A DNA stretch of 64,000 bases, from assembly GCA_041644975.1 (NCBI GenBank), contig JBAZQX010000003.1, forward strand, positions 7,530 through 71,529. The letters run 5' to 3'. The translations under genes were made by a program, and so were the position numbers. Every line of letters begins with the position of its first letter. The stretch's first letter is position 1. Shown one piece after another: positions 6,551 through 64,000 of the stretch. This stretch comes from Candidatus Doudnabacteria bacterium (GTDB lineage: Bacteria; Patescibacteriota; JAQUNI01). The notes below the pieces were generated by a model that ran no database searches, was not told where the DNA came from, and was given only the letters and a program-made list of their open reading frames with translations.

Positions 6551-9500
6551 ATGGAGAAAAACACGGAAGGCGAGGGGAAAGAAAAGCCTTTAGAAAAAGA
6601 TAAGAAACGAGAAAAAAGAAGAGAGGTAAAGAATAAACACAAAAACAAATTAGAGCCCTTAGACCCCGACGAGGGGAAAAATATTCCGGAGAAAACTGAA
6701 AAAGAGAAAGGAATTACTCCCGATAAGGTGCGGGTAATTTTAGATAATTTAGGGCGAGAATTGCCTCCAGAAAAAAAGGAAATTACGGTGCGCTTTCATC
6801 CTGATCTCGCGGAAAATAATTTTCCGGATTTAATTGCCAAATTAGAAGCCAAGACGGGTACCAAAATCATTCCTCAATGGGATGATGGGGTGGACATTGA
6901 AAAGGGTTTTGCGATTGTGTCCGAAACAGTCCCTGAAAAGCCGGAAACGCCTTTAGAACCAGCGGAGCTCCTACCCCCTCCTGTCTCCGCCCTTAAGGCA
7001 GAGGGAGAGCCGCTCCCACCCCCTCCAAATACAGAGAAAGAACAAAAGACCCCAGACGGGAATACCCCTGAAAAAAGCGTTAGCGAACCAGAGGAAAAAG
7101 GCGAGGAAAAGCCGCAAGAAGAACCTCCTTCAGAAGAAAACAAACCCAAACCAGAAGAAACCAAGCCTGAACAGAAAATGGCAGAAAAAAGCGTTCCCCG
7201 CGAAGAAGAGAAAAAAGAAACAAAAGAAATCCCACCGCGGATTCAAGAAGTTTTAGACCGCTTAAACGCAGAGCTGGAAAAGCATAGCGATGCCGAAGAA
7301 GTTGATGTTACTTTTAATTATAAACTTGCAGAGAGCCTGCTTACTATCCCAGGCGCGGACTTTAGAAAGCTCCGACCTCAAAGCTACAAAAAAATCCAAA
7401 CAATCAACTATTGGAAAGAAAGAGAGAGCGTTTCTCCTCTTGGTTTTGTAATTGAAGAAATAAAAAAGAGGAAACCCCAAGAAAAAGAAGCAACTCCCGA
7501 AAAAAAACCTAAATCAGAAGAAACCGAGCCCGAACAGAAAGCAGAAGAAAAAAATGTCCCTCCAGAAGGAGAGAAAAAAGAAACAGAAATCCCTCAAAAT
7601 ATGGAGATGCTGATTGCACTCTTAGATTCAAAAATAGCCGAATTTCAAACAGTCCATCCGGAAACCAAAGACATTGACATTCTTTTTAGCGAGGAACTCA
7701 TAAAAAAACTGGGGATAAAATATGGCGATAAAAAACAACAAGCAATCTGGCAAAAGATTGACTCCATCAAAGAGAAAGGATTCAATGTGCTATATTTTGG
7801 AGGAGAGAAGATACCCCCAGAAGAAGCGGTAAGGATTGAGGAGGTTGTTCCGAAAAAAGCAGGGGCAGAGACCAAAACAAAAGAAAAAATAACCCCCGCG
7901 GAAAAAGGCGAGATAAAGGAAGAGCCTTCCCAGGAGAAAACCGCTCCCTCCCCCTCCACCTCCCCCTCGGGCAGGGGGAGTGCCGCTCCCAAAACAGAAA
8001 AACCGCGAGAACCAATAACCGCGGCGCGAGAGACAGAGACCCCAATTGAAATACACCCCTCTCCATCCCGCGTGTCAGAAGAGCGGCTTGCTGAAAAGCG
8101 CCAAGAGTATTTAGAAGCCAAAAGACTGCGCGGTAAATTTATTAGCCGCGGAGAATTTAAAGGCAAAGAGGGAGAAGCGAAACTTGCTCAAATCGGTGAA
8201 GAATATAGCAAAATGCGCGCTGAATATATTCGCGGTAAAGCGACAGAAGTATTGAAAGAACAGAAGCTGCCCGCGACGGAATTGAAAACAAAGATTGTGG
8301 AGAAACTTCTGGAAGAATATAACAAAGAAGAAGGGGAACGGGAAAAATTGATCGAGGGCAGGGAAAAAGGCTTAGGGCAGAGGTTTAAAGAATGGTGGCG
8401 CCGTCATCCTAAAGCGCGAATGCTCGTTGGTTATGGCTTAACCGGCGCTTCGGTAGGGAGTATGCTTTCAGGACAGCTCTGGCTGACTCCTTGGTTTATT
8501 GGCGCCCGAGCCGCTTTTGCCGGAACGGGCGCGGCTCTCGGCACAGAAGGGATGTTATCCCGCTATTCTAAAACCTTAGGCGAAAAAGGGCTTGTGAACG
8601 AACTAGTTAAATTCAGCAAAGAAGAAAAGGCTAAACTCAAAAAAATCAAAGACAAAGGAGAACAGGAAAAAGCGCGCCAAAAAATGATTAACGATAACGT
8701 TGCCAAAGTCTCGCCCGAGAATTTAGCGCGCGAAATGGCGCGCGTCAAAACCCTGCAAGAGAAAAAAGGGGTGAAACTAGAAAATATAGGACCATATGGC
8801 GCGGTGCTTTTGGCTTTAAGAGCGCGGGAACAAGAACTTTTAAAAAAACGGATGACGGAGGCAATGGAAAAAGGAGAAAAAACTAAAGAAGATTTACTTT
8901 TTGAAGCTATAAACTCCGGCTTGGAAAAAGAGGCAAGAGAAATGGACAAAAATGTGGAAGGGGCGGGAGAGGCGGAAAGAAAAAAGGCAATCAAAAGATG
9001 GGTCTTCAGCAGTAGCGCTGGAGCAATCACAGCCGGACTCACCGCTTGGTGGGGATTCTCTAGGCTCGGAGAAATTTCAGGCAAGGGAAAAATAGCAGGG
9101 GGCGCGGCTCACGCAAAAACGGCTCTGGGTCTGCCAGCGCCAGAAGGGTTGGCAACGGATTTTGAGGTCATTGCCGGCAAAGGCGACTCGGTCTGGAAAA
9201 TGGCAAAACGCGCTTTGGCGGAAAAATATGGCAGCCGCTTTACCAATCTTGATGAAGCGCGCCGCACTTATGTCATTGACGCGATAAAAGATAAAATCGC
9301 GAAAAACCCCGCTCGTTTTGGTCTAACTGATATAGACAAGGTAAAGATTGGTCAGAAAATAGATTTTGGCGGATTAATAAAAAACAACAGTATAATGGAA
9401 GGGATCTTTGGCAAGGCGGGACGGCTAACAGGAGAACAAGTGGAAAATATTTTGAATAATAATGAGACAGTGCAAGAATTCCACCGTCTCCATCCCGGAA

Positions 9501-12779: not shown

Positions 12780-12990
12780 CGCAAGCTCGGCTTGCGTGGC
12801 GGGCGGGGAATTAGGAATTATGAATCAGGAATAGACCCCCTCCGCCTCCCCCTTGGCCTTGCCCTGCCGAAGCTCTAAAGAGCGTAGGCGGGTAAGGGGG
12901 AGTGAGAATCTTCCTCCCCTTGGAAAGCGGGAGGCGGGCCTGCCCGCCGAAGTCCGCCATAGGCGGACGAAGGCGGGGAGACTTGAACCA
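12780..12990. repeat. GC-rich palindromic repeat cluster, including the gtccgccataggcggac hairpin and the gggggagtgagaatcttcctcccctt element
   Basis: Shared motifs with 10205-10260 and 18345-18400. The GTCCGCC-NNNN-GGCGGAC hairpin family also occurs at 648, 23347, 46340 and 46425. Confidence 0.65.
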
Positions 12991-23282: not shown

Positions 23283-23450
23283 TCTAATTAACCGTGTCGC
23301 GCTTTGGAGGTCAGACGAAAGTCTGACACAGAAACTGGAGGTCCGCCTAAGGCGGACAATTGCTCGTGTCGCGCTTTCGCACGACCTCCTTGTGTTAAGC
23401 TTTCGCCCTTCCAGGACCTTCGGCTTGACCTCCAAATCAGGAATAATTAG
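23283..23450. repeat. Structured GC-rich element flanked by AT-rich inverted repeats (aattattctaatt / aattagaataatt); related in reverse orientation to the 590-720 element
   Basis: Long-range complementarity (ctttggaggtc ... gacctccaaa) and a ggtccgcctaaggcggac hairpin. It shares aggcggacaat..ctcgtgtc with the 620-650 element. Confidence 0.55.
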
Positions 23451-46299: not shown

Positions 46300-46495
46300 T
46301 TCAGGCATCGTCCCTGCCTACGTCCGCCTATGGCGGACTACGGCGAGCAGGCTTGTCCATTATAGCTTTAGCGAAGGTGGGCCGCAGACGACCCAAGCTT
46401 CAAAAAATCGCCCCTCGGCAAGCCCTGTCCGCCTAAGGCGGACTACGGGGCAAGCTTGGGACTTCGCCAAGCTGGCGATTTTTTGGTAGAATGGA
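46300..46495. repeat. GC-rich hairpin repeats (gtccgcctatggcggac, gtccgcctaaggcggac) plus a terminator-like ggcgattttttggtagaat end (also at 49518-49540)
   Basis: GTCCGCC-N4-GGCGGAC hairpins. aaaaaatcgcc...ggcgatttttt complementarity. Confidence 0.6.
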
Positions 46496-46549: not shown

Positions 46550-47600
46550 CTACTCGCTAATCCAAAACCAAAATTGATTGACCAGTTCCTCTTTCAATTT
46601 ATACGTGTCGGCATGGGAAAGAACGCCGAGATAGGAATGTAAGGATTGATTCAAGGACTTTTTATCAATTCCCCCTGCCTTATATTGAATAACTCTCATT
46701 TTTAATTTTTTGAATATCCGCTTTTTTGTTTTTGTCCGGAGTAGCCAATAATGAGGTAAAACGACATAGCCAAGAAAATCGATCCCTTGGCTATGTTTTC
46801 TAATAACAATTTTTTGGGGGTGCAGTTCCAGTGAAAGTTTTTCTCTTAAAAAAGAATCTGTCTCAAAGAGGATATTCTCCAATTCTTTTCTCTTTTTTTC
46901 AACAATAACAAAATCATCGGTATAGCGGGCATAGCATTTTATCCGTAATTTATTTTTAACGAACTGATCAAGCTCATTAAGATAAATATTAGCGAAAAGC
47001 TGGGATGTGAGATTGCCAATTGGTAGACCTCTTTCGGTCAAAATATCCGATTGTTCGGAAGAAAAACTGTTTATGATTTCTTTAATAAGCCAGATTGCGT
47101 TTTCATCTTTAATTCGTTTTTTTAAAATGCTCATTAGTATTCCGTGATCAACTGTTCCGAAAAATTTTCTGACGTCGCATTTCAAAATATAGCAGGCCTT
47201 GGAACAGTTTTTACTTGTTTTTCTTACGAAATTATTTAGAGCTAAGACTCCTTTATGCGTCCCTTTGCCAATACGACAAGAGAAAGAATGGGGTATAAAA
47301 GTTGGTTCAAAAATCGGATTAAGCACCGAGAATATGGCGTGGTGCAAAATCCTGTCTCGGACTTCGGCTTTGTGAATATGCCTTTGTTTCGGATCGCGAA
47401 TGTAAAATGAAGTATAACTCCCGTGCTTATATGAGCGTCTTCTTAATTCCCTCTGCAACTGGAAAATATTCTTTTCCAGTTTCCATTCAAATCGCCGGAC
47501 ATCCATTTTTCTCCATTTGCCAACCTTAAAATCATCCCAAGCTGAGAATAGGTTCTCTGACGAAATGATTTGATTAAAAATGTTTTTATAAATTTTCATA
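46550..47600 (-). CDS. Diversity-generating retroelement (DGR) reverse transcriptase
   Basis: RT motifs: LPIGNLTSQLFANIYL, carrying the DGR-specific [I]GxxxSQ variant of motif 4, and YARYTDDFVIV (YxDD). The start is assigned to MKIYKNIF. Confidence 0.8.
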
Positions 47601-47609
47601 ACAATCACC

Positions 47610-47960
47610 ATGGAAGAATTTGACATGCCAATCTTCAAAAAAATCTACGAGTTATATCGGAATTTCCGCAGCTTTAGAAATTCAATTCCCAAGCAAGACC
47701 GCTACACTCTCTGGCAAAAGTGCGAAAATATCCTGATGGAAACATTGGAAAACATCTTGTTGGCGAGCCAAATATCCAAAGCGGAAAAATTGCCAGTCCT
47801 TGAAAAAGCCAGCTTGAAGCTGAACTCATTCAGGATTTTTGTCCGCCTTGCCAAAGAAGTGAAAGTAATTGATGGCAAAAAGTATGTTCTACTTCAAGAA
47901 AATACCGATGAAATCGGACGGATGCTCGGTGGCTGGATAAAATCCGTTCGCTCGAATTAA
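47610..47960 (+). CDS. avd: DGR accessory variability determinant (Avd)-like four-helix-bundle protein
   Basis: Same family as 1778-2143 (YTLWQKCENILMETLENILLA ... TDEIGRMLGGWIKS). Divergent from, and adjacent to, the RT. Confidence 0.65.
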   Translation: MEEFDMPIFKKIYELYRNFRSFRNSIPKQDRYTLWQKCENILMETLENILLASQISKAEKLPVLEKASLKLNSFRIFVRLAKEVKVIDGKKYVLLQENTDEIGRMLGGWIKSVRSN

Positions 47961-48010
47961 AACAAAGGACATCTTCTTTTCAGATGTCCTTTACTTATGA
48001 GGAGAGACTT

Positions 48011-48135
48011 CGGAACGAACCCAGACGCCGAACCATATTGCCTATTAGCAAGGTACGTCCAGTTGGTGTTGAAGTGAAGCTTGCCGTCGTTCCAATTGAA
48101 GATCGAAGCGCTCACGAACTCGCCATCGCCGTCAG
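48011..48135 (-). other. DGR template repeat (TR)
   Basis: 125 nt aligned to VR 48565-48689 with 8 differences. Seven of the eight are T in this copy on the plus strand, which is A on the minus strand, versus G/C/A in VR. This is the adenine-specific mutagenesis signature. Confidence 0.75.
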
Positions 48136-48555
48136 AATTTTACTTCTGCCCATCTTTGATCACCAGAAATTGAGATTTACCGCCTAAAAAAATAGGCCTA
48201 TTTTCTCTCTTTCTTGAATTTTATTCGGGAGCAGTTTTTTGGACATCTCCACAAGGCAAAAGCAAGCAGTATCTCCTCAAGATAACACACTTCTTTCGGC
48301 CGTAGCTAAAAGAACTCCGGTTATTTTCCTTGAAGAGGCGAGAAGGCGACAGTAATCCGTGGACGGCTGTGCATTAGCCCGCTCAATTAGAAGTATAGCG
48401 AAAAGATTATTTGAAACAAATAAAAATGGGCTATCGATGTGATAACCCCTTCTTGAACCGACCGCCTTCGGTCGCACGACGCTCAATAGCTTTGGCGACG
48501 GCGCGCGGAAGTTTCAAGGGTTAAAGAAGGACACAAGGTTTCAAAGCTCCGAGGT

Positions 48556-49269
48556 TCAACCCTGCGGAACGAACCCAGACGCCGAACCATATGGCCTATT
48601 AGCGAGGTACGTCCAGCGGGTGTTGAAGTGAAGCTCGCCGTCGTACCAATCGAAGAGCGAAGCGCTCACGAACTCGCCATCGCCGTCAGGAGCATATTCG
48701 TCGCCACCACAGTCAACGTGCAGTTGCTCCCAGACCTGCTCACGTTCGGGATGAGTGAGAAGCATTACGCCGATGGGATAGGCACCAAAAAGAATTTCGT
48801 TATCCAGAACATTTTCACGAGCACAGTCAACGCTTTCGCCCCTATGCTTTTTTCCGAACTGAGCGGGAACGACGGGTGTAAATTTCTCGCCTTGTATTAG
48901 CGTTAGCTGATTCCAGAGGCTGAGGGTGCGTTTACTTTGCCGAAGGTAGAGATGACCTGTTTTGCCCTGACGCCAATTCCTGAACTCACGACTCTTGCCG
49001 ATCCTCTCCAGCACAAAATCCACGGCATAATTGTAGGGATGTTCGCAGTTAGATGGGACAATATTCTGGATAGGCGGAATAACCCAAAATCCTTCGGCTC
49101 CCTCGGGAAGCTTATTAATGTTGGCGAGCGGTTTGAGAAGAAACTGATATTCTTCCCGAAGGATTGTAGCCTGCTCCTCCGGTTCCTTCGCTCCGTTGTA
49201 GCCTTTGGGATATTCATAATTTGATTCAACCTTGTCATGCGGATTTTTATTTTCTTTCATCTTCTTCAT
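48556..49269 (-). CDS. DGR target (variable) protein with a C-terminal VR, consistent with a C-type lectin/FGE-like fold
   Basis: The VR (48565-48689) occupies the last roughly 41 codons before the stop. Confidence 0.65.
   Translation of the reverse strand: MKKMKENKNPHDKVESNYEYPKGYNGAKEPEEQATILREEYQFLLKPLANINKLPEGAEGFWVIPPIQNIVPSNCEHPYNYAVDFVLERIGKSREFRNWRQGKTGHLYLRQSKRTLSLWNQLTLIQGEKFTPVVPAQFGKKHRGESVDCARENVLDNEILFGAYPIGVMLLTHPEREQVWEQLHVDCGGDEYAPDGDGEFVSASLFDWYDGELHFNTRWTYLANRPYGSASGFVPQG
48565..48689 (-). other. DGR variable repeat (VR) at the 3' end of the target gene
   Basis: See TR. Identity breaks down immediately outside the 125-nt block. Confidence 0.75.
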
Positions 49270-54221: not shown

Positions 54222-54293
54222 GGACGATTAGCTCAGTGGTAGAGCGCACGGTTCACATCCGTGAGGTCGCAGGTTCAAATCCCGCATCGTCCA
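54222..54293 (+). tRNA. tRNA-Val (anticodon CAC); CCA not encoded
   Basis: Acceptor GGACGAU/AUCGUCC, anticodon stem CACGG/CCGUG, loop UUCACAU. One A:C mismatch in the T-stem. Confidence 0.75.
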
Positions 54294-54439
54294 CAAAGGA
54301 AGCTAAAAGTGAAAAGTTAAAAGCGAAAAACTATTTAATAAAATTTTTCTACACTTGCTTGCCTGTCCGCCAAAGTTTCAACGACGGCGGGCAAGCGGTA
54401 ATTTTCAGACTGCCCCCCAAGGGGGCATAGAAGTATTTC

Positions 54440-54513
54440 GCCCTCGTAGCTCAACTGGATAGAGTGTGTGGCTTCGGACCACAAGGTTGCAGGTTCGACT
54501 CCTGCCGAGGGCA
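54440..54513 (+). tRNA. tRNA-Arg (anticodon UCG); CCA not encoded
   Basis: Acceptor GCCCUCG/CGAGGGC, anticodon stem UGUGG/CCACA, loop CUUCGGA, T-arm GCAGG-UUCGACU-CCUGC. Confidence 0.75.
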
Positions 54514-54739
54514 CTTTCGCTTCGCTCAAATTTAAAATTTAAAGTGCCCGCCCTTTGTTGGCTCCATAGTGGCGTTAGCCCTGTGGAGCCTAAATGCAAG
54601 CCATGAAGAGAAAATATTATTAGACTTTAATCCTGTTTCGCATTCAAGGCTCCACAGCCCTCCCTTCGGTCGGGACTATGGAGCCAACAGACGGCTCGTT
54701 CAGGCGAGGCGGGCGCGGCCTGCCCGCTCAATAGCCTTT

Positions 54740-54812
54740 GCGCCCATAGCTCAATTGGTAGAGCAGCACCCTCTTAAGGTGACGGTTGGAGGTTCGATTC
54801 CTCCTGGGCGCA
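54740..54812 (+). tRNA. tRNA-Lys (anticodon CUU); CCA not encoded
   Basis: Acceptor GCGCCCA/UGGGCGC, anticodon loop CUCUUAA, T-arm GGAGG-UUCGAUU-CCUCC. Confidence 0.75.
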
Positions 54813-54837
54813 CAAAAAAATGAAAAACGGCATCTTT

Positions 54838-55022
54838 TTCCGTCATTGCGAGGAGCGAGTCCGACGAAGCGACGCGGCAATCGCCACAAAGGATAGAATA
54901 AGGGTTTAGGAATAATAATTTTTTGAAGGTAAAGATAAAATGTTTCTTCCTTCCTTATTCTTTGTTGCCCATATTCTGCTTTCTTGGCGATTGCTTCGTC
55001 GCAGACTCCTCGCAATGACGAG
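54838..55022. repeat. Long imperfect palindrome of about 185 nt between tRNA-Lys and tRNA-Val
   Basis: cgtcattgcgaggagcgagtccgacgaagcgacgcggcaatcgcca ... tggcgattgcttcgtcgcagactcctcgcaatgacg; AT-rich centre. Confidence 0.6.
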
Positions 55023-55072
55023 ATGAAAGTATTTATGAAAACCCGATAGCAATCTTTTAGAATTAATTTTAG

Positions 55073-55146
55073 GGGCTCGTAGCTCAGTTGGTTAGAGCGC
55101 TACGTTGACATCGTAGAGGTCTGCAGTTCAAGTCTGCACGAGCCCA
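55073..55146 (+). tRNA. tRNA-Val (anticodon GAC)
   Basis: Acceptor GGGCUCG/CGAGCCC, anticodon stem CUACG/CGUAG, loop UUGACAU, T-arm GCAGU-UCAAGUC-UGC. Followed by the cacctacgctaaagcttcggtgg hairpin, which also follows tRNA-Ile. Confidence 0.75.
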
Positions 55147-55252
55147 CCTACGCTAAAGCTTCGGTGGGTAAACCCACAAAAAAAGCGTAAAGCTAAAAGC
55201 AAAAAAATGTAAAATAAAAAATTTAATTTAGAATTTATTTTGGAAAGGAAAA

Positions 55253-56185
55253 ATGAACAAATTTATTGTTCAAGCAAAAGATAAAGGCGGACGATTGGAC
55301 AAGTTTTTAGTGCGCAAATTTCCGCAATATTCGCGCTCCCATTTACAAAAAAATATCAAAAGAGGACGGGTTACTGTAAATAAGGGGAACGAAAAAAAAC
55401 CTGATTACAGGCTTAAAGCGGGGGATATTATTGAAGCTGACATTGAACCCCTAGAAATGGTTAGTTTGGCTCCAGATAAAACTATTCCTTTAGATATCGT
55501 TTATGAAGACGACAATCTGTTGGTAATTAATAAGCGAGCCGGAATTGTAGTGCACGCCGGGGTGGGACGAACAAAAAATAATTTAGTGAACGCGCTGATT
55601 GCCCATTATCCTGCAATAAAAAAAGTAGGGGACGACAAGACCCGTCCCGGAATTGTGCACCGCCTAGATAAAGATGTTTCCGGTTTAATGGTGGTGGCGA
55701 AAAATGATAAATCTTTTGAATATTTAAAGTCTTTATTTAAGGAGAGAAAAATTGAAAAAAACTATTTAGCTCTGGTCCGGGGCAAGTTTAAAAAAGAAGA
55801 GGGCAGGGTGGATTATCCTATCGCGCCTAATCCGCGCGATCCGCGCAAGATGGTTGCCGTGCAAAATAGAAATGAAAAACTATTAGCCCGCGCGAAGTCG
55901 GCTTTAACTGAATATAAAGTCATCAAACAGTTTGACAATACCGCCTATATTAAAGTATATTTAAGAACAGGACGGCGGCATCAAATCCGCGTCCATTTTA
56001 AATCCATTGGTCATCCTTTAGTCAATGATCGTTTTTATGGTTACCGCAAACAACAGTTTTTAGGTTCAGGTCGTCTTTTCCTCCACGCGAGCAAATTGAG
56101 TTTTACTTCTCCGCAAGGCAAAAAATTATCATTCATCTCTAAATTGCCCAATGATTTACAAGAAATCCTAACGCAACAGGAATAA
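55253..56185 (+). CDS. rluD: RluA-family 23S rRNA pseudouridine synthase (RluD-like) with N-terminal S4 domain
   Basis: Catalytic motif HRLDKDVSGLMVVAKN. S4-like N-terminus. Confidence 0.8.
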   Translation: MNKFIVQAKDKGGRLDKFLVRKFPQYSRSHLQKNIKRGRVTVNKGNEKKPDYRLKAGDIIEADIEPLEMVSLAPDKTIPLDIVYEDDNLLVINKRAGIVVHAGVGRTKNNLVNALIAHYPAIKKVGDDKTRPGIVHRLDKDVSGLMVVAKNDKSFEYLKSLFKERKIEKNYLALVRGKFKKEEGRVDYPIAPNPRDPRKMVAVQNRNEKLLARAKSALTEYKVIKQFDNTAYIKVYLRTGRRHQIRVHFKSIGHPLVNDRFYGYRKQQFLGSGRLFLHASKLSFTSPQGKKLSFISKLPNDLQEILTQQE

Positions 56186-56236
56186 AGAAAGAGGAGGGAG
56201 GATAATATTCATAAAGCCTCCCACTATTCCTTATTC

Positions 56237-56734
56237 ATGATTCATAATTCCATGATTCCATTAATAGACGAATTCAAAAAAACTAACATACGCTCGGATA
56301 TCCCAAATTTTCGTCCCGGCTACACCATCCGCGTCCACCAAAAGATTCAAGAAAAAGGGAAGGAAAGAATTCAAATCTTTGAAGGGGTGGTTATCGCGCG
56401 TAAAAAAGGAGAAAGCGCGGAAGCCACTTTTACCGTCCGCAAAATTTCTCAAGGAATCGGCGTGGAGAGAATTTTCCCTTTATATTCTCCCCATATTGCC
56501 GAAATAGAGGTCGTAAAAACCGCGGAGCCCCGCCGGGCAAAATTATATTATCTGCGTCGCCGCGAACGCGAAAAAATGCGACGGGAAGAGAGGGTCAAGG
56601 AAAAAGAAGTGAAAATTGTCAAAACAGCGGACAAGAAAAAAGAAGCGCCAGAGGAAAAGCAAGAAGCCCAAAAACCCGAAGAAGAAGGAAAACATATAAA
56701 AAAAGAATCTAAACTAAAAGAATCTTCAAAATAA
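56237..56734 (+). CDS. rplS: 50S ribosomal protein L19 with a K/E-rich C-terminal extension
   Basis: [38 protein letters not shown]...[21 protein letters not shown]. Confidence 0.9.
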
Positions 56735-56746
56735 AATTGTCTTCCT

Positions 56747-56829
56747 AGCCCAGGTGGCGCAATTGGTAGACGCAATAGACTGAGGCTCTATGCCCTTTTG
56801 GGTATGCGGGTTCAAGTCCCGCCCTGGGC
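56747..56829 (+). tRNA. tRNA-Leu (anticodon GAG), long variable arm
   Basis: Acceptor GCCCAGG/CCUGGGC, anticodon stem AUAGA/UCUAU, loop CUGAGGC, variable arm GCCCUUUUGGGUAU, T-arm GCGGG-UUCAAGU-CCCGC. Confidence 0.8.
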
Positions 56830-56856
56830 ACAAAATAAATGAAAAATTATCAGCCC

Positions 56857-56896
56857 TAGGTCGTTCAGACTCTGATGAGTCTTCAGACTCGAAGAG
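56857..56896. repeat. Hammerhead-like 40-nt motif, copy 2 (identical to 650-689), 28 nt downstream of tRNA-Leu and enclosed by the AUCAGC/GCUGAU stem
   Basis: Exact identity to copy 1. Followed by the cggccttgggccg hairpin. Confidence 0.5.
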
Positions 56897-56944
56897 CTGA
56901 TCGGCCTTGGGCCGAAAAGTTCAAACTTAAAATGTCTTAATCTT

Positions 56945-57277
56945 ATGGCAACTTTTGAGGACTTCTTAAAATTAGATATTCGGGTGGGAAAAATTATTGA
57001 AGTTGAGAAATTGCCAAATCCAAAGCACACTACCCATAAATTAACCATTGATTTCGGTCCTGAAATTGACAAAAAGGTCTCTGGCGCTCGCCTTGTTCGC
57101 TACACGAAAGAACAGTTAGTCAACAAATTAGTCTTAGGTGTTGTAAATTTACCGCCAAAACAAATCGGGCAATTGGCTTCTGAAGTTCTAATATTGGGAG
57201 CTATGGATGCCCAAAAAGAATGCGTCCTTATCTCTCCTGACAGTAAAGATGCAATAATTGGCAGTAAAATTTATTAA
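56945..57277 (+). CDS. CsaA/Trbp111-like OB-fold tRNA-binding domain protein
   Basis: FLKLDIRVGKIIEVEKLPN...KL..DFG.E...VSGA matches the tRNA-binding (EMAP/MetRS C-terminal-like) domain. Confidence 0.75.
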   Translation: MATFEDFLKLDIRVGKIIEVEKLPNPKHTTHKLTIDFGPEIDKKVSGARLVRYTKEQLVNKLVLGVVNLPPKQIGQLASEVLILGAMDAQKECVLISPDSKDAIIGSKIY

Positions 57278-57397
57278 ATACGGCATCACCCGCCTGCCAG
57301 AGCGCGACCACTTAGCTTGAGTTGGTAGAGCATTTGCTTTATTCACCCGCCTAAATTTTTTGGTGTGTAACTCAAGTCTTACCCCCACACCTTTCGG

Positions 57398-57470
57398 GGA
57401 CGCATAGCTCAGTTGGTAGAGCGCCTCGTTTACACCGAGGAGGTCATAGGTCCGAGTCCTATTGCGTCCA
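57398..57470 (+). tRNA. tRNA-Val (anticodon UAC), precisely enclosed by a 14-bp inverted repeat (acccccacaccttt / aaaggtgtgggggt)
   Basis: Acceptor GGACGCA/UGCGUCC, anticodon stem CCUCG/CGAGG, loop UUUACAC. The T-loop UCCGAGU is atypical because it has C55. Preceded by a degraded tRNA-like fragment (57318-57345: agcttgagttggtagagcatttgc). Confidence 0.65.
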
Positions 57471-57612
57471 CAAAGGTGTGGGGGTAAAGCTGGAGCACCT
57501 AGAAGGCCTGAAGTTTAAATCCTACATTACCCACAGAGTAAATTAAAAATGAAAAGTAAAAAATGTAAAATTGAATTTTTAATTTTTCATTTTTAATTTT
57601 AAATTGTTTTGG

Positions 57613-57930
57613 GCGGCTAGCCCCTCACCCAGAAAGTTTCTATGTATTATGTTTATTTAATCAGAAGCAAAAGAGACAATAGTTTATATATTGGATATAC
57701 AGACAACTTAAAAAGGAGGGTGGAAGAACATAATACTAAAAAGAGTAAATTCACAAAGGCTAAAACTCCCTATGGACTTATTTATTATGAAGCTTATAAA
57801 CACAAATCTGACGCTAAATATAGAGAACACAATTTGAAAAGATTTGCCCAAGCTTATACCCAGTTACAGAGAAGAATCAAGAATAGTTTAAATGATTCTT
57901 AAACTTTCTGGGTGAAGGGCGGCTAGCTCA
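57613..57930 (+). mobile_element. GIY-YIG cassette inserted at the 5' end of tRNA-Ile: an 11-bp duplication (gggcggctagc) of the tRNA 5' end, plus 18-bp inverted termini (ccctcacccagaaagttt / aaactttctgggtgaaggg) flanking the ORF
   Basis: Direct repeat gggcggctagc at 57613-57623 and 57917-57927. The TIRs sit immediately inside it. Confidence 0.6.
57642..57902 (+). CDS. Small standalone GIY-YIG nuclease family protein (paralog of 14819-15061)
   Basis: MYYVYLIRSKRDNSLYIGYTDNLKRRVEEHN. Confidence 0.85.
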   Translation: MYYVYLIRSKRDNSLYIGYTDNLKRRVEEHNTKKSKFTKAKTPYGLIYYEAYKHKSDAKYREHNLKRFAQAYTQLQRRIKNSLNDS

Positions 57931-57990
57931 GTTGGTTAGAGCGCGTCTCTGATAAGGACGAGGTCTCAGGTTCGAATCCTGAGCCGCCCA
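57917..57990 (+). tRNA. tRNA-Ile (anticodon GAU)
   Basis: Acceptor GGGCGGC/GCCGCCC, anticodon stem CGUCU/GGACG, loop CUGAUAA, T-arm UCAGG-UUCGAAU-CCUGA. Confidence 0.8.
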
Positions 57991-58038
57991 CCTACGCTAA
58001 AGCTTCGGTGGACAAGCCCACCGAACACAAAATAAACG

Positions 58039-60253: not shown

Positions 60254-60704
60254 GAAAAATAGCTAAAAATTAAATTACTTTAGTTATGTTATATTTCATT
60301 TGCTTTATACTTCAGCGAAGCGGATAAAATCGCATACTTTGTTTATTGCTTTGGGGAAACCGCTTCGTCATCAGAGCGGTTTTTTGATTGGTAAAATTTC
60401 AAGAGAGAAGCCAAACTTTTTACTTCACCTCTATTCAAAAAGTTCCCTTTTCTCTTGAATGAAGCCGTTCACGAACAGCTTCATAAATGAAAGAACCTTG
60501 ACAATTGAATAACCCATTAAGATAGATATGAATTTATCTAATGGGGTCAAAAATGATTAGAAAACAAAGGGCGTATGGTGGATGCCTTGACTTAAAGAGA
60601 CGATGAAGGACGTAGCAGGCTGCGATAAGCCTCGGGGAGCTGCCAAGCAAGCTTTGATCCGAGGATTTCCGAATGGGGAAACCCAGCGCGGCAAACCCGC
60701 GCTA

Positions 60705-60833
60705 CCCCTCACCTAAAAAGGATTTTTGTTAAAAAATAGGTATTTTTTCTTATTTTAAAAGGTTATAAAAAATAAGATGGATACTGATTTTTAGCGAATC
60801 GCAAAGCGATTCGTATCCTTTTTAGGTGAGGGG
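60705..60833 (+). mobile_element. 23S rRNA intervening sequence 1, MITE-like, with perfect 18-bp terminal inverted repeats cccctcacctaaaaagga / tcctttttaggtgagggg
   Basis: AT-rich core of about 130 nt with a gaatcgcaaagcgattc hairpin. Inserted in the 5' domain at a helix-9-like position. Paralogous to IVS2 and IVS3. Confidence 0.7.
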
Positions 60834-60944
60834 AGACAACCCGGGGAACTGAAACATCTTAGTACCCGGAGGAAAAGAAAAAAAATCCGCGCTTTGCGCG
60901 GAACATTCCCTGAGTAGTGGCGAGCGAAAGGGGAAGAGCCTAAA

Positions 60945-61074
60945 CCCCCCACCTAGAAAAGATTTTTATTAAAAAAAGATATTTTTCTCGTTTTAAAAGA
61001 TTATAAAAAATGAGATGGATATTGATTTTTAGCGAATCGCTTACGCGATTCGTATCTTTTCTAGGTGGGGGGGG
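60945..61074 (+). mobile_element. 23S rRNA intervening sequence 2 (TIR ccccccacctagaaaaga / tcttttctaggtgggggg)
   Basis: Paralog of IVS1 with the same internal ttttagcgaatcgc..gcgattcgtatc core. Confidence 0.7.
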
Positions 61075-61272
61075 TTATAAGACAAATACGCTATCAGGGC
61101 AACCTGGTACAGAGTTTAACAAAATGCAACTTGCCTAGCAGAAGGCGCCTGGAACGGCCCACCAAAGAAGGTAAAAGTCCTGTACGCGAAAAGCGTTGCA
61201 TCTCTGATGTATCTGTTTCTTGAGTACTACACCACCAGGGAAATGGTGTAGGAAGTCGGGAGTACTACTAAA

Positions 61273-61404
61273 CCCCTCACCTATAAAGGATTTCAGTTAA
61301 AAAAATATTTTATTTAGATTGATCTAAGGGTCAGATAAAATAGATTAAAAAATAATTAGTTTTAGCGAATTGCCAAGCAATTCGTATCCTTTATTGGTGG
61401 GGGG
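61273..61404 (+). mobile_element. 23S rRNA intervening sequence 3 (TIR cccctcacctataaagga / tcctttattggtgggggg)
   Basis: Paralog of IVS1 and IVS2. Confidence 0.65.
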
Positions 61405-61431
61405 CTCCCAAGGCTAAATACTCTTTAAGAT

Positions 61432-61468
<37 letters not shown>

Positions 61469-62338
61469 CATCCCGGTGAGGGAGATGAAATAGTATCTGA
61501 AACCATACGCTTACAAAGAGTCAGAGCCGTCCTTCGCTTTTTGCTTCGCAAAAAGCTTCGGAACGGTAAACCCTTCAGAAATTAAAAGAGGGCTTGCCAT
61601 TCCGTAGCTCGTGAGCGAAGTAATGAGCGAAGGATGGTGATGGCGTGCTTTTTGTAGAACGAACCAACGAGTTAGCTGTGTATTGCTCGTATAAGTCCGC
61701 TTAGCGGACGTATGCAAAGTGAAAGCGAGCGTTAATAGCGCGTTTTAATTCATTAGGCAAATAGAATTCTTCTATTTGCCTCAATAATTAAAGGCAGTAC
61801 ACACTAGACCCGAAGCCAGACGAGCTAGCCTTGGTCAGGGTGAACTTTGGGTAACACCAAAGGGAAGCCCGCACCCATTGGTCGTGTAAAGCCATGGGAT
61901 GAACTGAGGCTAGAGGAGAAATTCCAATCGAGTCTGGTGATAGCTGGTTCTCCCCGAAATAGCTTTAGGGCTAGCGTCCTATTTACAAATTTGGAGGTAG
62001 AGCACTGGATGGAGCAGGATGGGATTTCTCCCTACTTGTCCCAACTAAACTCCGAATTCCAAACTTTTATGATAGGGCAGTCAGAACGGCGCGGATAAGC
62101 GCGTCGCTCAAAAGGGAAACAGCCCAGATTCTTATCTAAGGTCCCTAAGTTCAAGTTAAGTGGTAAAGGAAGTGAGATTACAGAGACAATTAGGAGGTTG
62201 GCTTAGAAGCAGCCATCCTTTAAAGAAAGCGTAACAGCTCACTAATCGATCGTGATCTTGCGCCGAAAATGTAACGGGGCTCAAACTTGACACCGAAGAT
62301 AGAGGCCAGAGACGTACCTCACTGCGTTCGGTACGGGC

Positions 62339-62487
62339 AAATTTTTAATTTTTAATTTTTAATTTTTAATCAATTTTCAATGATTTAATGCTTAAATTTT
62401 TAAACTCAATAGAATAAAGAGTTTGAAAATTAAGCCATTAAGAAATTGGGATTTGTTTGAAAATTAGAAATTGAAAATTAGAAATTG
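62339..62487 (+). other. AT-rich insertion in the 23S rRNA at a helix-45-like position (aatttttaatttttaa ... gaaaattagaaattgaaaattagaaatt inverted repeat)
   Basis: Interrupts the region homologous to E. coli about 1170-1185. The arms are complementary. Confidence 0.6.
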
Positions 62488-63039
62488 CCGGCCGAGCGTA
62501 GCGAGGTGCGGCTTTGGCGGTAGGGGAGCATTCTATATCCAGTAAAGCCAGTCTGTAAGGACTGGTGGAGGATATAGAAGAGAGAATGTTGGTATGAGTA
62601 ACCTAAAGTCCGGTGAGAAACCGGACCACCGTAAGTCTAAGGTTTCCTGGGCAACGTTAATCAACCCAGGGTTAGTCGATCCTAAGTCGCAAAAAACGAC
62701 GATGGAAGAGTAGGTTAATATTCCTACACTACTATTAATTTTGACGGAGGGACGCCACAGGATAGATTTCGTGTCCTAATGGTTTAGGCATTGGTGATCC
62801 GTAGTCGGAAGAAACAGGCAAATCCGTTTCTTCAATTTCAAACGGCGAAGATTATCAAAAGGTTTATTCCGCAAGGAATAGATCAATGAAATTGATTCCA
62901 GTGGCCAAGAAAAACTCCTAAAATTAGATTAATAGTACTCGTACCGTAAACCAACACAGGTAGACGGGTAGAGGATACCAAGGTGTTCGGGTGATCCTTA
63001 GCTAAGGAATTCGGCAAAACAACTAGGTGTAAGTTCGCA

Positions 63040-63290
63040 AGATACCTTGCCTCGGAACATTTCGCTTTCGCTTCGTGTTTCTTAAGAAATCCCAAAAATC
63101 AAGCGCCAAGCAACAAACAAATTACAAACAGAAAAATTCCAAGCTTAAAAGGGTTTGGAATTTAGGAAATTGAAATTTGAGATTTGTTTAAAAATTGTCT
63201 CGCTATGCGAGATCTGGCGAAGCCAGAAAAATTATGATTTGGGATTTGGAACACGAAGCGCTAGCGGAGTGCGACCGGGGTCGCAGTTAA
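63040..63290 (+). other. Expansion segment in 23S rRNA domain IV (about 250 nt where E. coli has about 100 nt)
   Basis: Lies between GGAAUUCGGCAAAACAACUAGG and GACUGUUUACCAAAAACACAGG. Contains aaatccc...gggattt-type complementarity. Confidence 0.5.
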
Positions 63291-63447
63291 AGATCCAGGA
63301 CGACTGTTTACCAAAAACACAGGTCCCTGCAAAGCCGATAAGGCAAAGTATAGGGGCTGACGCTTGGCCAGTGTCGGAACGTTAAGAGCGGGGGTGAAAG
63401 CTCTCGCTTTAAGCGCCGATGAACGCCGGCCGTAACTATAACGGTCC

Positions 63448-64000
63448 TATGGTAATTTCGTTGCCATAGTAAAATCTGGCTATATGCTGGAACATCTGGA
63501 GAATCTAGTGCTACTATGGTATAATTGAACCATAGATTAATTATCTATAAAATTATGCCAGGTAAAAAAGCATCTAGTGTGCTAAATAAAATAGCGCCAG
63601 ATAATCAGCAGGAAAGACTAATAACTATTGGTTGGATTATTGGATTTACTGATGGTGAAGGGTGCTTTACGGTTAGTTTAATTAAAAATCCGACCACAAG
63701 AACAGGACACCAAATATTTCCTGAATTTGTTGTCACGCAAGGTGAAAAGAGTATAAGTGTATTGAAAAAAATGCAAAAATTCTTCAATTGTGGAAAGATA
63801 TTCGTGAATCGAAGACATGATAATCATAAAGAAAATTTACACAGATATTGCGTGAGAAGCATAAAAGACCTCAATGAAAAAATCATTCCATTCTTCATTG
63901 AAAATGAGTTGAGAACAGATAAAAAAAGAGATTTCAAGAATTTTGCAATTATTCTGAATATGATGAAAAAGAAAAAACACTTATCTAAAAAAGGCTGCAA
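63448..64000 (+). mobile_element. Group I intron inserted in the 23S rRNA after GGUCCUA (E. coli position about 1917), encoding a LAGLIDADG homing endonuclease; truncated by the window
   Basis: Conserved 23S sequence stops at ...aacggtccta. The ORF follows within the intron. Confidence 0.7.
63555..64000 (+). CDS. LAGLIDADG-family homing endonuclease (intron-encoded), 3'-partial
   Basis: MPGKKASSVLNKIAPDNQQERLITIGWIIGFTDGEGCFTV... The LAGLIDADG-type motif is IGFTDGEGCF. The frame is open to the end of the window. Confidence 0.75.
   Translation, partial: MPGKKASSVLNKIAPDNQQERLITIGWIIGFTDGEGCFTVSLIKNPTTRTGHQIFPEFVVTQGEKSISVLKKMQKFFNCGKIFVNRRHDNHKENLHRYCVRSIKDLNEKIIPFFIENELRTDKKRDFKNFAIILNMMKKKKHLSKKGC

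Follow-up and report, generated by a model that had tools for sequence, protein, structure and literature searches.

Is the locus around the reverse transcriptase (RT) gene of this Candidatus Doudnabacteria genome an intact diversity-generating retroelement (DGR), and which RNA elements would serve it? Within the stretch of DNA analysed (the window, 64,000 nt), the gene order is target gene, template repeat (TR), inverted avd and RT, with target, variable repeat (VR), TR and RT all on the minus strand. The sequence-only reading had proposed a complete DGR consisting of RT, Avd, TR and a C-terminal VR, and each of these components was upheld by a separate test. We consider it very probable that the locus is an intact DGR with the CPR-typical order target-TR-(avd)-RT. 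The window coordinates place TR, opposite-strand avd and RT as in architecture B3, defined as "TR-(avd)-RT" in the legend of Figure 5 of Wu et al. (2018, NAR, PMC5758913) and accounting for 90% of known CPR DGRs according to the same study. As this layout has already been published, the DGR described here adds an example to a known class; the only new point is a conserved folded RNA beside the TR. CPR DGRs were reportedly the subject of Paul et al. 2017 (Nat Microbiol), and the class is said to have been catalogued since that year.

The RT gene (46550..47599, minus strand) is an open reading frame of 349 aa with a match to Pfam RVT_1 (4.6e-25), recorded at NCBI as MFA4880357.1 from a Candidatus Doudnabacteria MAG. 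The frame is as first described, save for its start: 46550-47600 is out of frame, so the start moves to the ATG at 47599. Both motifs read from the translation, LPIGNLTSQ and YTDDF, are present. RTs of the DGR clade carry [I/L/V]GxxxSQ where group II RTs have xGxxxSP. The best match in the PDB is 8ub7_A, a 328-aa RT (E 8e-49, 170 bits), as against at most 93 bits and E-values of 2e-25 or weaker for group II intron RTs. Judging from length and motifs, we take 8ub7 to be the bRT of Bordetella phage BPP-1; it aligns to residues 2-340, with LPIGNLTSQ opposite PIGSLTSQ and YTDD likewise aligned. Full-length similarity extends to the RTs of Bordetella, Vibrio VP585, ANMV-1 and Pseudoalteromonas ACA1/2 phages. 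The first three are presumably DGR carriers, and we infer that the ACA1/2 phages carry DGRs as well. By motif and by its nearest matches, this is a DGR-clade RT as far as sequence comparison can tell.

Head-to-head with the RT gene, across a gap of 10 nt, lies avd (47610..47960, plus strand, 116 aa). Its adjacent and divergent placement had been recognized correctly, and its identity is borne out by Pfam bAvd (60.6 bits vs a cut-off of 40), while NCBIfam DivGenRetAVD scores 77.3 bits, 2.7 short of its cut-off of 80. An alternative start at 47625 gives a product of 111 aa, the length also called on a Logan contig. The same inverted position of avd recurs in ~40 related loci.

TR (48011..48135) and VR (48565..48689), both on the minus strand, align without gaps over 125 nt at an offset of 554 and with 8 mismatches, confirming the match first noticed by eye. 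VR encodes target residues 194-235 of 237 and sits, as claimed, at the extreme 3′ end of the gene, with 6 nt between its end (48565) and the stop codon (48556-48558). Read on the coding strand, seven of the eight differences do fall on TR adenines, for which the hypergeometric P is 5.7e-5 given 26 A in 125 nt. All seven are non-synonymous changes at codon position 1 or 2; the eighth, a T>C change at a third codon position, is synonymous. Almost all TR adenines (25/26) occupy positions 1-2 of the VR frame, and a single TR codon (AAG) is capable of becoming a stop under A mutation. Neither blastn nor tblastn revealed a third TR/VR copy in the window. The adenine bias extends beyond this locus: the target has 251 relatives in species-representative genomes, of which we fetched 80 loci and found ~40 with the same cassette, and ungapped TR/VR pairs from 34 of these related CPR loci (35 pairs with the window) differ at 12-26 positions, nearly all of them TR adenines. 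In three loci of the same DGR class (L063, L064 and L067) the TRs are identical and the VRs different.

At their 3′ ends, the repeats share 25 nt without A: the end of TR (48035-48011) is IMH*-like, and the identical end of VR (48589-48565) would be its IMH-like counterpart. The flanks part immediately thereafter, with CAGGGTTGA past VR and AAGTCTCTCC past TR. An IMH and a hairpin had both been expected at the VR end; the identical A-free 25 nt agree with the former, but no convincing BPP-1-type hairpin directly follows VR. An imperfect predicted stem straddles the VR end, and a clear conserved hairpin, terminator-like in appearance, lies 108 nt downstream (48428..48448, minus strand; GGGTTATCACATCGATAGCCC followed by a T run, found by a terminator scan). 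Only about one DGR in three has a GC-rich hairpin or cruciform just past VR (PMC5758913). The hairpin motif GGGGTTATCCACA...TGGATAACCCC, searched as a regular expression, occurs downstream of 19/45 cassette-linked and 19/45 orphan target genes. The 3′ flank of the target gene (48449..48555, minus strand) holds CTTGA-type repeats and a window-specific GC-rich insert; the repeats number 3.1-3.5 per 122 nt vs a background of 0.81, and the predicted fold of 48420-48600 has z = -2.7. A DnaA-box-like hairpin past the target was considered as a functional DnaA site and rejected, the window copy being degenerate.

What does the element diversify? The target gene (48556..49269, minus strand) encodes a hypothetical protein of 237 aa (234 aa in the NCBI call). 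The structural model of its C-terminus came out C-type-lectin-like, as the sequence-only reading had anticipated, so that by its model the target is a variable protein whose predicted CLec fold displays the variable residues. A Foldseek search of this model against the PDB gave no significant match, and neither a signal peptide nor a membrane segment is evident from the target sequence. The Doudnabacteria genome thus appears able to hypermutate a lectin-fold protein, presumably for a binding partner or host molecule.

The sequence-only reading had missed the RNA that lies between VR and TR. Directly 5′ of TR, the minus strand carries a conserved structured leader of ~250 nt (48136..48385), present in 31 loci (alignment A4). 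It folds into helices P1 (48379-48345) and P3 (48323-48283), followed by a long-range helix P4 (48265-48254 with 48151-48140) that encloses P5 (48250-48228) and P6 (48214-48165). RNAalifold on A4 returns 54 pairs, of which 43 show compensatory changes; across the 31 loci 95.2% of cells are paired, as opposed to 33-53% when the sequences are slid, and the covariation score of 0.649 (0.13-0.17 in the comparison) was reached in 0/500 shuffles. Searched with nhmmer, the A4 profile, which includes the window row, has a single match in the window, at 48385-48138 (E 1e-56). In IMG/VR, the leader core 16-mer has 38 matches, about the number expected by chance on a rough estimate, and only two (L117 and L123) come with the cassette.

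A second long-range helix spans TR itself. A single-stranded leader segment, UUGAGGAGAUACU (48268..48280, minus strand), pairs with the post-TR motif AGUCUCUCCUCA (47998..48009, minus strand); the segment overlaps the conserved leader core GAGGAGAUACUGCUUG (48263-48278), and the sequence CCG|AAGTCTCTCC following TR is conserved in 31 loci. For this helix 85% of cells are paired vs 40-59% when slid, double changes are seen in 8/11 pairs, and the covariation score was reached by 0/500 shuffles; in the window the helix is intact (-16 kcal/mol). Beyond it stands a hairpin (47964..47992; AAAGGACATCT-7 nt-AGATGTCCTTT) between runs of A and T; a clear counterpart with a stem of ~8-16 bp and varying sequence occupies the corresponding position in nearly all 34 loci, L023 being the clear exception. 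This hairpin probably terminates transcription from both directions, that of TR and that of avd, and it is also a candidate for an Avd-binding stem-loop. Upstream of the leader, a -10-like box, TATACT (48392..48397, minus strand), is preceded by TTGTTT 16 nt further upstream (48414-48419), and each of the 31 loci has a box of the form TAnnnT, in most cases TATACT or TATAAT, ~8-14 nt ahead of P1. When the leader was searched for segments that could pair with the TR 3′ end in template:primer fashion, only the known helix and one 5-bp candidate inside P1 came up, the latter wobble-rich and put down to chance.

Could the repeats instead be the product of an ordinary duplication of part of a gene, with an unrelated RT of a retron or group II intron nearby and the adenine bias a coincidence? 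The annotation would seem to favor this, since the top NCBIfam model for the RT is TIGR04416 (group II intron RT/maturase) and NCBI annotates the gene accordingly. The score of 160.7 bits, however, is far under the 300-bit cut-off of that model, the retron RT model NF038233 reaches 52 bits against a cut-off of 235, and Rfam detects neither a group II intron RNA nor a retron RNA in the window. Coincidence would, moreover, have to account for an adenine bias that recurs in 34 independent loci and for the avd gene and the conserved RNA elements that flank TR. This explanation is already contradicted, and we regard it as exceedingly improbable.

Harder to dismiss is a DGR that was recently silenced or is decaying, in which the parts look intact, homing no longer takes place and the TR/VR differences are left over from the past. 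With 7/26 TR adenines altered in VR, the window ranks lowest among the 35 pairs compared, and its 8 mismatches fall below the range found elsewhere. One of them is the synonymous non-adenine change, which may mean that homing last occurred long ago. A close relative (L005/L006) has a clean A-only TR/VR pattern despite a truncated RT, from which it follows that such a pattern outlives activity. Nor were population variants of the target retrieved: a single target sequence is on record, a look-up of the exact protein gave no entry, the 90% cluster of the target has one member, the two members of the RT cluster stem from the same contig, the sole additional contig (L001, from Logan run SRR8449827) shows no differences and breaks off within TR, and a scan of metagenome contigs for the VR end plus flank gave no match. 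Against decay speak a full-length RT whose catalytic motifs, YTDD and IGxxxSQ, align with 8ub7, an intact avd, a leader that fits the family profile (which contains the window row) over almost its full length, and a preserved helix across TR; 11/34 of the other pairs likewise contain one or two non-A mismatches. On balance we deem silencing unlikely, perhaps one chance in five, and an intact, apparently working element the better account. One locus (L002) had been considered as a syntenic 'empty site' and was discarded: its TrmB gene is no ortholog and the homology runs out ~6 nt past the -10 box, so L002, which lacks the cassette, is only an orphan target.

How might such an element work? A transcript of ~430 nt would start near 48385, just downstream of the -10 box, span the 250-nt leader and the 125-nt TR, and stop at the hairpin 47992-47964. 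Within it, the leader segment would pair with the motif directly 3′ of TR. As P4 ends 4 nt before TR, TR would be looped out between P4 and this helix, both of them conserved, in an arrangement resembling the upstream:downstream 'cPRT Stop' duplex of BPP-1. RT and Avd would then bind the RNA and reverse-transcribe TR, inserting wrong bases opposite adenines. Directed by the 25 A-free nt in which both repeats end, the resulting cDNA would replace VR at the target 3′ end and could thereby recode up to ~19 codons of the predicted C-type-lectin-like binding surface.

The Bordetella spacer model does not apply as such to B3 elements, because avd occupies the place of the spacer. We tentatively propose, at somewhat less than even odds, that in this CPR class the DGR RNA is a permutation of its Bordetella counterpart. 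Here, the 250-nt 5′ domain would act as the scaffold and assume the functions (RT-binding, thumb-ring and priming) that belong to the 3′ spacer in BPP-1, TR would be clamped between P4 and the leader:post-TR helix, and only a short motif and the terminator hairpin shared with avd would follow TR. With 31 diverse sequences and strong covariation, the leader offers a model for how the DGR RNA of the dominant CPR architecture is structured, and we see in it a more useful by-product than the DGR itself. Which RNA elements recruit RT-Avd and set cDNA start and stop in CPR DGRs is a question that can now be tested in vitro.

How does the locus compare with known systems? Its likeness to CPR DGRs in general, which the sequence-only reading had asserted, holds: the B3 layout is the same (PMC5758913) and is shared by the ~40 related loci. 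CPR B3 DGRs have target, TR, inverted avd and RT in the order and orientation seen here, a CPR host, a target without recognizable Pfam domain and a C-terminal VR of ~125-130 nt. We find no essential difference, and the Doudnabacteria locus is one further example. TvpA (2Y3C) and Mtd (1YU0-4), variable proteins of other DGRs that adopt a C-type-lectin fold, have no detectable sequence similarity to the target, whose N-terminal ~130 residues form a distinct subdomain.

The leader has its closest counterparts in Rfam among noncoding structured RNAs that adjoin an RT gene, namely RT-16 and RT-7, described as candidate RNAs next to RT genes by Weinberg et al. (2017, PMC5737381). Searches of the leader region and 14 related loci returned no family at the gathering score. 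The best match, RT-16 (RF03019), scores 26.4 bits vs a gathering score of 50 (E 0.04-0.09); among related loci it is absent from 14 at gathering scores and from 8 at E ≤1. The only other family matched in these searches, RT-7, is likewise weak. The whole RT-16 model nevertheless aligns to 48284-48134; the outer stem is similar and an AUAAAAU.CA segment is shared, a likeness that may serve as a lead, not as proof of membership. As a 5′ domain, the leader thus matches no Rfam family at the gathering score, and no description of it was found in the papers covered, among them Wu et al. 2018 and Handa et al.

[quoted passage not shown] Handa et al. (bioRxiv 10.1101/2023.10.23.563531) described the BPP-1 RNA elements, looked for the duplex and the stem-loop among CPR DGRs, and reported their presence there. 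Both types of element appear to be represented here, as a covarying duplex across TR and a predicted stem-loop just downstream of it. In contrast to BPP-1, no convincing GC hairpin directly follows VR in the window, and avd is inverted and placed between TR and RT. The upstream strand of the window duplex lies ~130 nt before TR with a three-helix domain in between, and only ~50 nt separate TR from the terminator-like hairpin, as compared to a 140-nt spacer in BPP-1. Finally, the large structured RNA is located 3′ of TR in BPP-1, whereas in the window, as a conserved leader, it precedes TR on the 5′ side.

Is the locus a complete diversity-generating retroelement (DGR), as the sequence-only reading proposed? 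Both the component tests and the adenine-specific differences between its repeats support that interpretation. The template repeat (TR, 48011-48135, minus strand) and the variable repeat (VR, 48565-48689, minus strand) align without gaps at a constant spacing of 554 nt, with 117 of 125 positions identical, which bears out the reported 125-nt match with eight differences; identity drops abruptly beyond both repeat ends, and no third copy was found within the 64-kb window. Read from TR to VR on the minus (coding) strand, the differences are A>C, A>G, A>T, A>G, A>C, A>G, T>C and A>C. The claim that seven of the eight sit at TR adenines is therefore confirmed, and because adenines account for 26 of the 125 nt of TR, the probability of at least seven such differences is P = 5.7e-5. 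All seven adenine changes fall at codon positions 1 or 2 and alter the residue (I205L, N207D, N209Y, K212E, N218R and Q226P, with two changes in the one codon of N218R); the sole non-adenine difference, T>C, is silent at a third codon position. Codon positions 1-2 hold 25 of the 26 TR adenines, and AAG is the only TR codon able to mutate to a stop. An IMH was sought at the VR end: the final 25 nt, identical and adenine-free in both repeats and followed by diverging flanks, fit an IMH/IMH* pair.

The other components agree with this picture. The 349-aa reverse transcriptase (RT, 46550-47599, minus strand) matches Pfam RVT_1, and its closest solved structure over the full length is the 328-aa RT chain 8ub7 (E 8e-49, 170 bits), which we take, from chain length and motifs, to be the Bordetella phage bRT. 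In that alignment LPIGNLTSQ falls opposite PIGSLTSQ of 8ub7, and YTDD opposite its YMDD. Gene and motifs stand as originally described, except that the start codon lies at 47599 rather than 47600. Group II intron RTs among solved structures reached at most 93 bits, and scores against the NCBIfam group II, retron and DRT models were all far under their cut-offs; in the source, a Candidatus Doudnabacteria MAG, the protein is annotated merely as 'reverse transcriptase/maturase family protein'. A translated search of phage genomes returned full-length matches at 35-41% identity, including Bordetella phages, Vibrio phage VP585 and the archaeal virus ANMV-1, presumably all DGR carriers, and Pseudoalteromonas phages ACA1/2, which probably carry DGRs as well, given that their genome paper surfaced in a DGR literature search. 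The adjacent, divergent Avd-like gene (avd, 47610-47960, plus strand) is a 116-aa ORF on the strand opposite to RT that passes the Pfam bAvd threshold, as its earlier description would predict, and falls 2.7 bits under the NCBIfam DGR-Avd threshold. The two start codons face each other 10 nt apart (47599-47610; 0-25 nt in most related loci), and no promoter for either gene was identified at this head-to-head start region. With so short a gap, each promoter would lie inside the other gene's coding sequence, or else TR transcription might continue through avd in antisense and so reach RT.

How widespread is this arrangement? Scanning one genome per species, we found 251 loci encoding target relatives, nearly all in CPR/Patescibacteria MAGs, and fetched 80. 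About 40 of these carry the same cassette, in the order target, ~400-nt spacer, TR, opposite-strand avd, and RT head-to-head with avd; in five loci the complete TR-avd-RT module lies upstream of the target in inverted orientation, and about half of the fetched loci have no cassette within 6 kb. The window's layout is exactly the 'Architecture B3, TR-(avd)-RT' reported for 90% of a CPR set (Wu et al. 2018, PMC5758913), and its DGR therefore belongs to an already described kind. Among the loci with an inverted upstream module, three (L017 6846-6970, L022 5639-5762 and L029 6849-6977) match the Rfam LOOT RNA (RF03000) above the gathering score, at 74-80 bits and ~165 nt downstream of the target; no match to this family was found in the window.

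The adenine bias extends to the relatives: 34 gapless TR/VR pairs from related loci have 12-26 differences each, almost exclusively at TR adenines. Three MAG loci (L063, L064 and L067) share an identical 129-nt TR (7092-7220) within cassettes that are 95-97% identical, yet no two of their VRs (6586-6714) agree, many TR-adenine positions being changed between them. Such divergence is evidence from nature that this DGR class diversifies, and it has the look of an ongoing process. Could the window's own element be intact-looking yet silent? Its eight differences are the fewest compared with the 34 related pairs, and so few changed adenines, together with a single silent change outside the adenines, would fit a last homing event that happened long ago. 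A relative with a truncated RT (L005/L006) still has a cleanly adenine-only TR/VR pattern. Considering the low adenine-change count, the silent T>C and this relative together, we regard a silent element as unlikely, albeit worth keeping in mind. Standard mutagenic retrohoming is the best-supported reading. The truncated relative (73%; bacterium SZUA-486, contig QKEW01000014.1, 9807-10572) has an RT ORF ending after ~100 residues, and the next ORF encodes a recombinase zinc-ribbon domain; all 14 of its TR/VR differences are at adenines, and a second, 42% identical target paralogue lies 2 kb upstream.

The target ORF encodes 237 aa (48556-49269, minus strand) and gave no matches in Pfam, NCBIfam or PDB. 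Its 125 homologues, all hypothetical and predominantly from CPR phyla, share the scaffold ..LLTHPERE..WEQLHIDCAGDEYAPDGDG.FV.AP.F.W.DG.L.F.T.W...A....GSASGF.PQ., and the hypervariable positions between scaffold residues in their alignment fall on the TR adenine codons. Only one version of the target was present in the collections searched. An imperfect stem is predicted across the VR end, and a clear, conserved, terminator-like hairpin 108 nt beyond the VR-end region looks like the target gene's terminator. CTTGA-type repeats in the target 3' flank occur at 3.1-3.5 per 122 nt versus a background of 0.81, a ~4-fold density, and flank orphan and cassette-linked targets alike. The flank concerned is 48428-48555 in the window, with equivalents in the targets of L002-L085; in ~40% of target genes the repeats are followed by a conserved hairpin motif, GGGGTTATCCACA...TGGATAACCCC, with a DnaA-box-like arm. 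In the window this motif is degenerate, and the flank holds an additional GC-rich insert.

The ~420-nt interval between VR and TR is not filler: it holds conserved sequence and a structured RNA that the sequence-only reading overlooked. Across 31 aligned loci, noncoding conservation in the 425 nt upstream of TR is higher than expected, since the proteins of the same loci are merely 40-75% identical. All 31 loci have a -10-type box ~8-14 nt ahead of the first helix; it reads TATACT in the window (48397-48392, minus strand) and either TATACT or TATAAT in most loci. The box precedes a leader RNA (~48385 to 48136, minus strand) comprising helix P1 (48379-48345), a small local hairpin, helix P3 (48323-48283) and P4 (48265-48254 with 48151-48140), a long-range helix of 12 bp that is closed around P5 and P6 and ends 4 nt before TR in the window and within a few nucleotides of the TR start elsewhere. 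The single strands between helices are conserved, with little or no variation at most positions of the core GAGGAGAUACUGCUUG. Under the proposed structure 95.2% of alignment cells are paired, 357 are changed on both sides and the covariation score is 0.649, compared with 33-53%, 56-76 and 0.13-0.17 when partners are slid by 1-3 columns; none of 500 shuffles attained any observed measure, and 43 of 54 predicted pairs show compensatory changes. An nhmmer profile built from this alignment, the window's own row included, detects the leader once in the window and recovers it from 50 loci. No Rfam family matched the leader region at gathering score. RT-16 aligns over its full length but weakly (26.4 bits, E 0.04-0.09), and one relative has a similarly weak hit to RT-7; both are leads only. 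RT-16 is an RT-associated candidate RNA, and some such RNAs have been suggested as DGR parts (Weinberg et al. 2017, PMC5737381).

Two IMG/VR contigs classed as viral, IMGVR_UViG_3300024999_000712 (L117) and IMGVR_UViG_3300025012_001675 (L123), carry leader RNA, avd and RT (RT 59% identical), L117 also a target homologue; the remaining 36 matches to a 16-mer leader probe were chance-like. In the closest relative (Logan contigs L002, L003 and L004; target 79% identical), the target, 3' flank and -10 box TATACTTCTAA are retained, homology ends ~6 nt past the box (window 48387), and leader, TR, avd and RT are all absent beyond that point. The TrmB gene next to it is no orthologue of the one in the window.

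The conserved motif CCG|AAGUCUCUCCUCA, directly 3' of TR, forms a helix with UUGAGGAGAUACU (48280-48268, minus strand), a single-stranded stretch of the leader. This clamp helix has 85% of cells paired versus 40-59% when slid, double changes in eight of 11 pairs and a covariation score reached by none of 500 shuffles. The hairpin that follows varies in sequence but keeps its position and a ~8-16-bp stem in almost every one of 34 loci, with L023 as the clear exception. Bordered by runs of A and of U, it adjoins the avd stop codon, and we read it as a putative bidirectional terminator common to the TR transcript and avd.

The DGR sits among ordinary chromosomal genes: those for a TrmB regulator and L-fucose isomerase, and a methyltransferase-like ORF whose match is weak. 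tRNAs and 23S rRNA lie farther along. A cluster of seven tRNA genes (54222-57992) is followed by the 23S gene (60555-63544), which scores just 1325 bits against the full bacterial model and has tRNA-Ile(GAT) 2.5 kb upstream; 16S, tRNA-Ala and 5S genes were not detected in the window. The window also has four copies, with none expected by chance, of the GC-rich palindrome GTCCGCCTAWGGCGGAC(TACGG), which resembles a dispersed element of the REP type (12947-12968, minus; 23341-23362, 46322-46343 and 46427-46448, plus). Two of the copies lie between the TrmB gene and the RT stop codon.

Retrohoming here would proceed with an RNA layout unlike the Bordetella model, and what most deserves the attention of DGR specialists is the conserved leader RNA and its clamp helix. 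The leader might serve as an RT/Avd-binding scaffold; the ends of the TR transcript are predicted, and a search between leader and TR 3' end found no pairing able to act as the template:primer duplex. In BPP-1, a duplex of a TR-upstream segment with the 3' spacer ('cPRT Stop') flanks TR, an Avd-binding stem-loop lies just downstream of TR and a 140-nt spacer wraps around RT, and such duplexes and stem-loops are reported for 207 of 278 DGRs, CPR ones included (bioRxiv 10.1101/2023.10.23.563531). Like BPP-1, the window has an analogous duplex and stem-loop. Unlike the 140-nt spacer of BPP-1, however, just ~50 nt follow TR, because avd occupies the site in antisense, and the large conserved structured domain is instead found 5' of TR.
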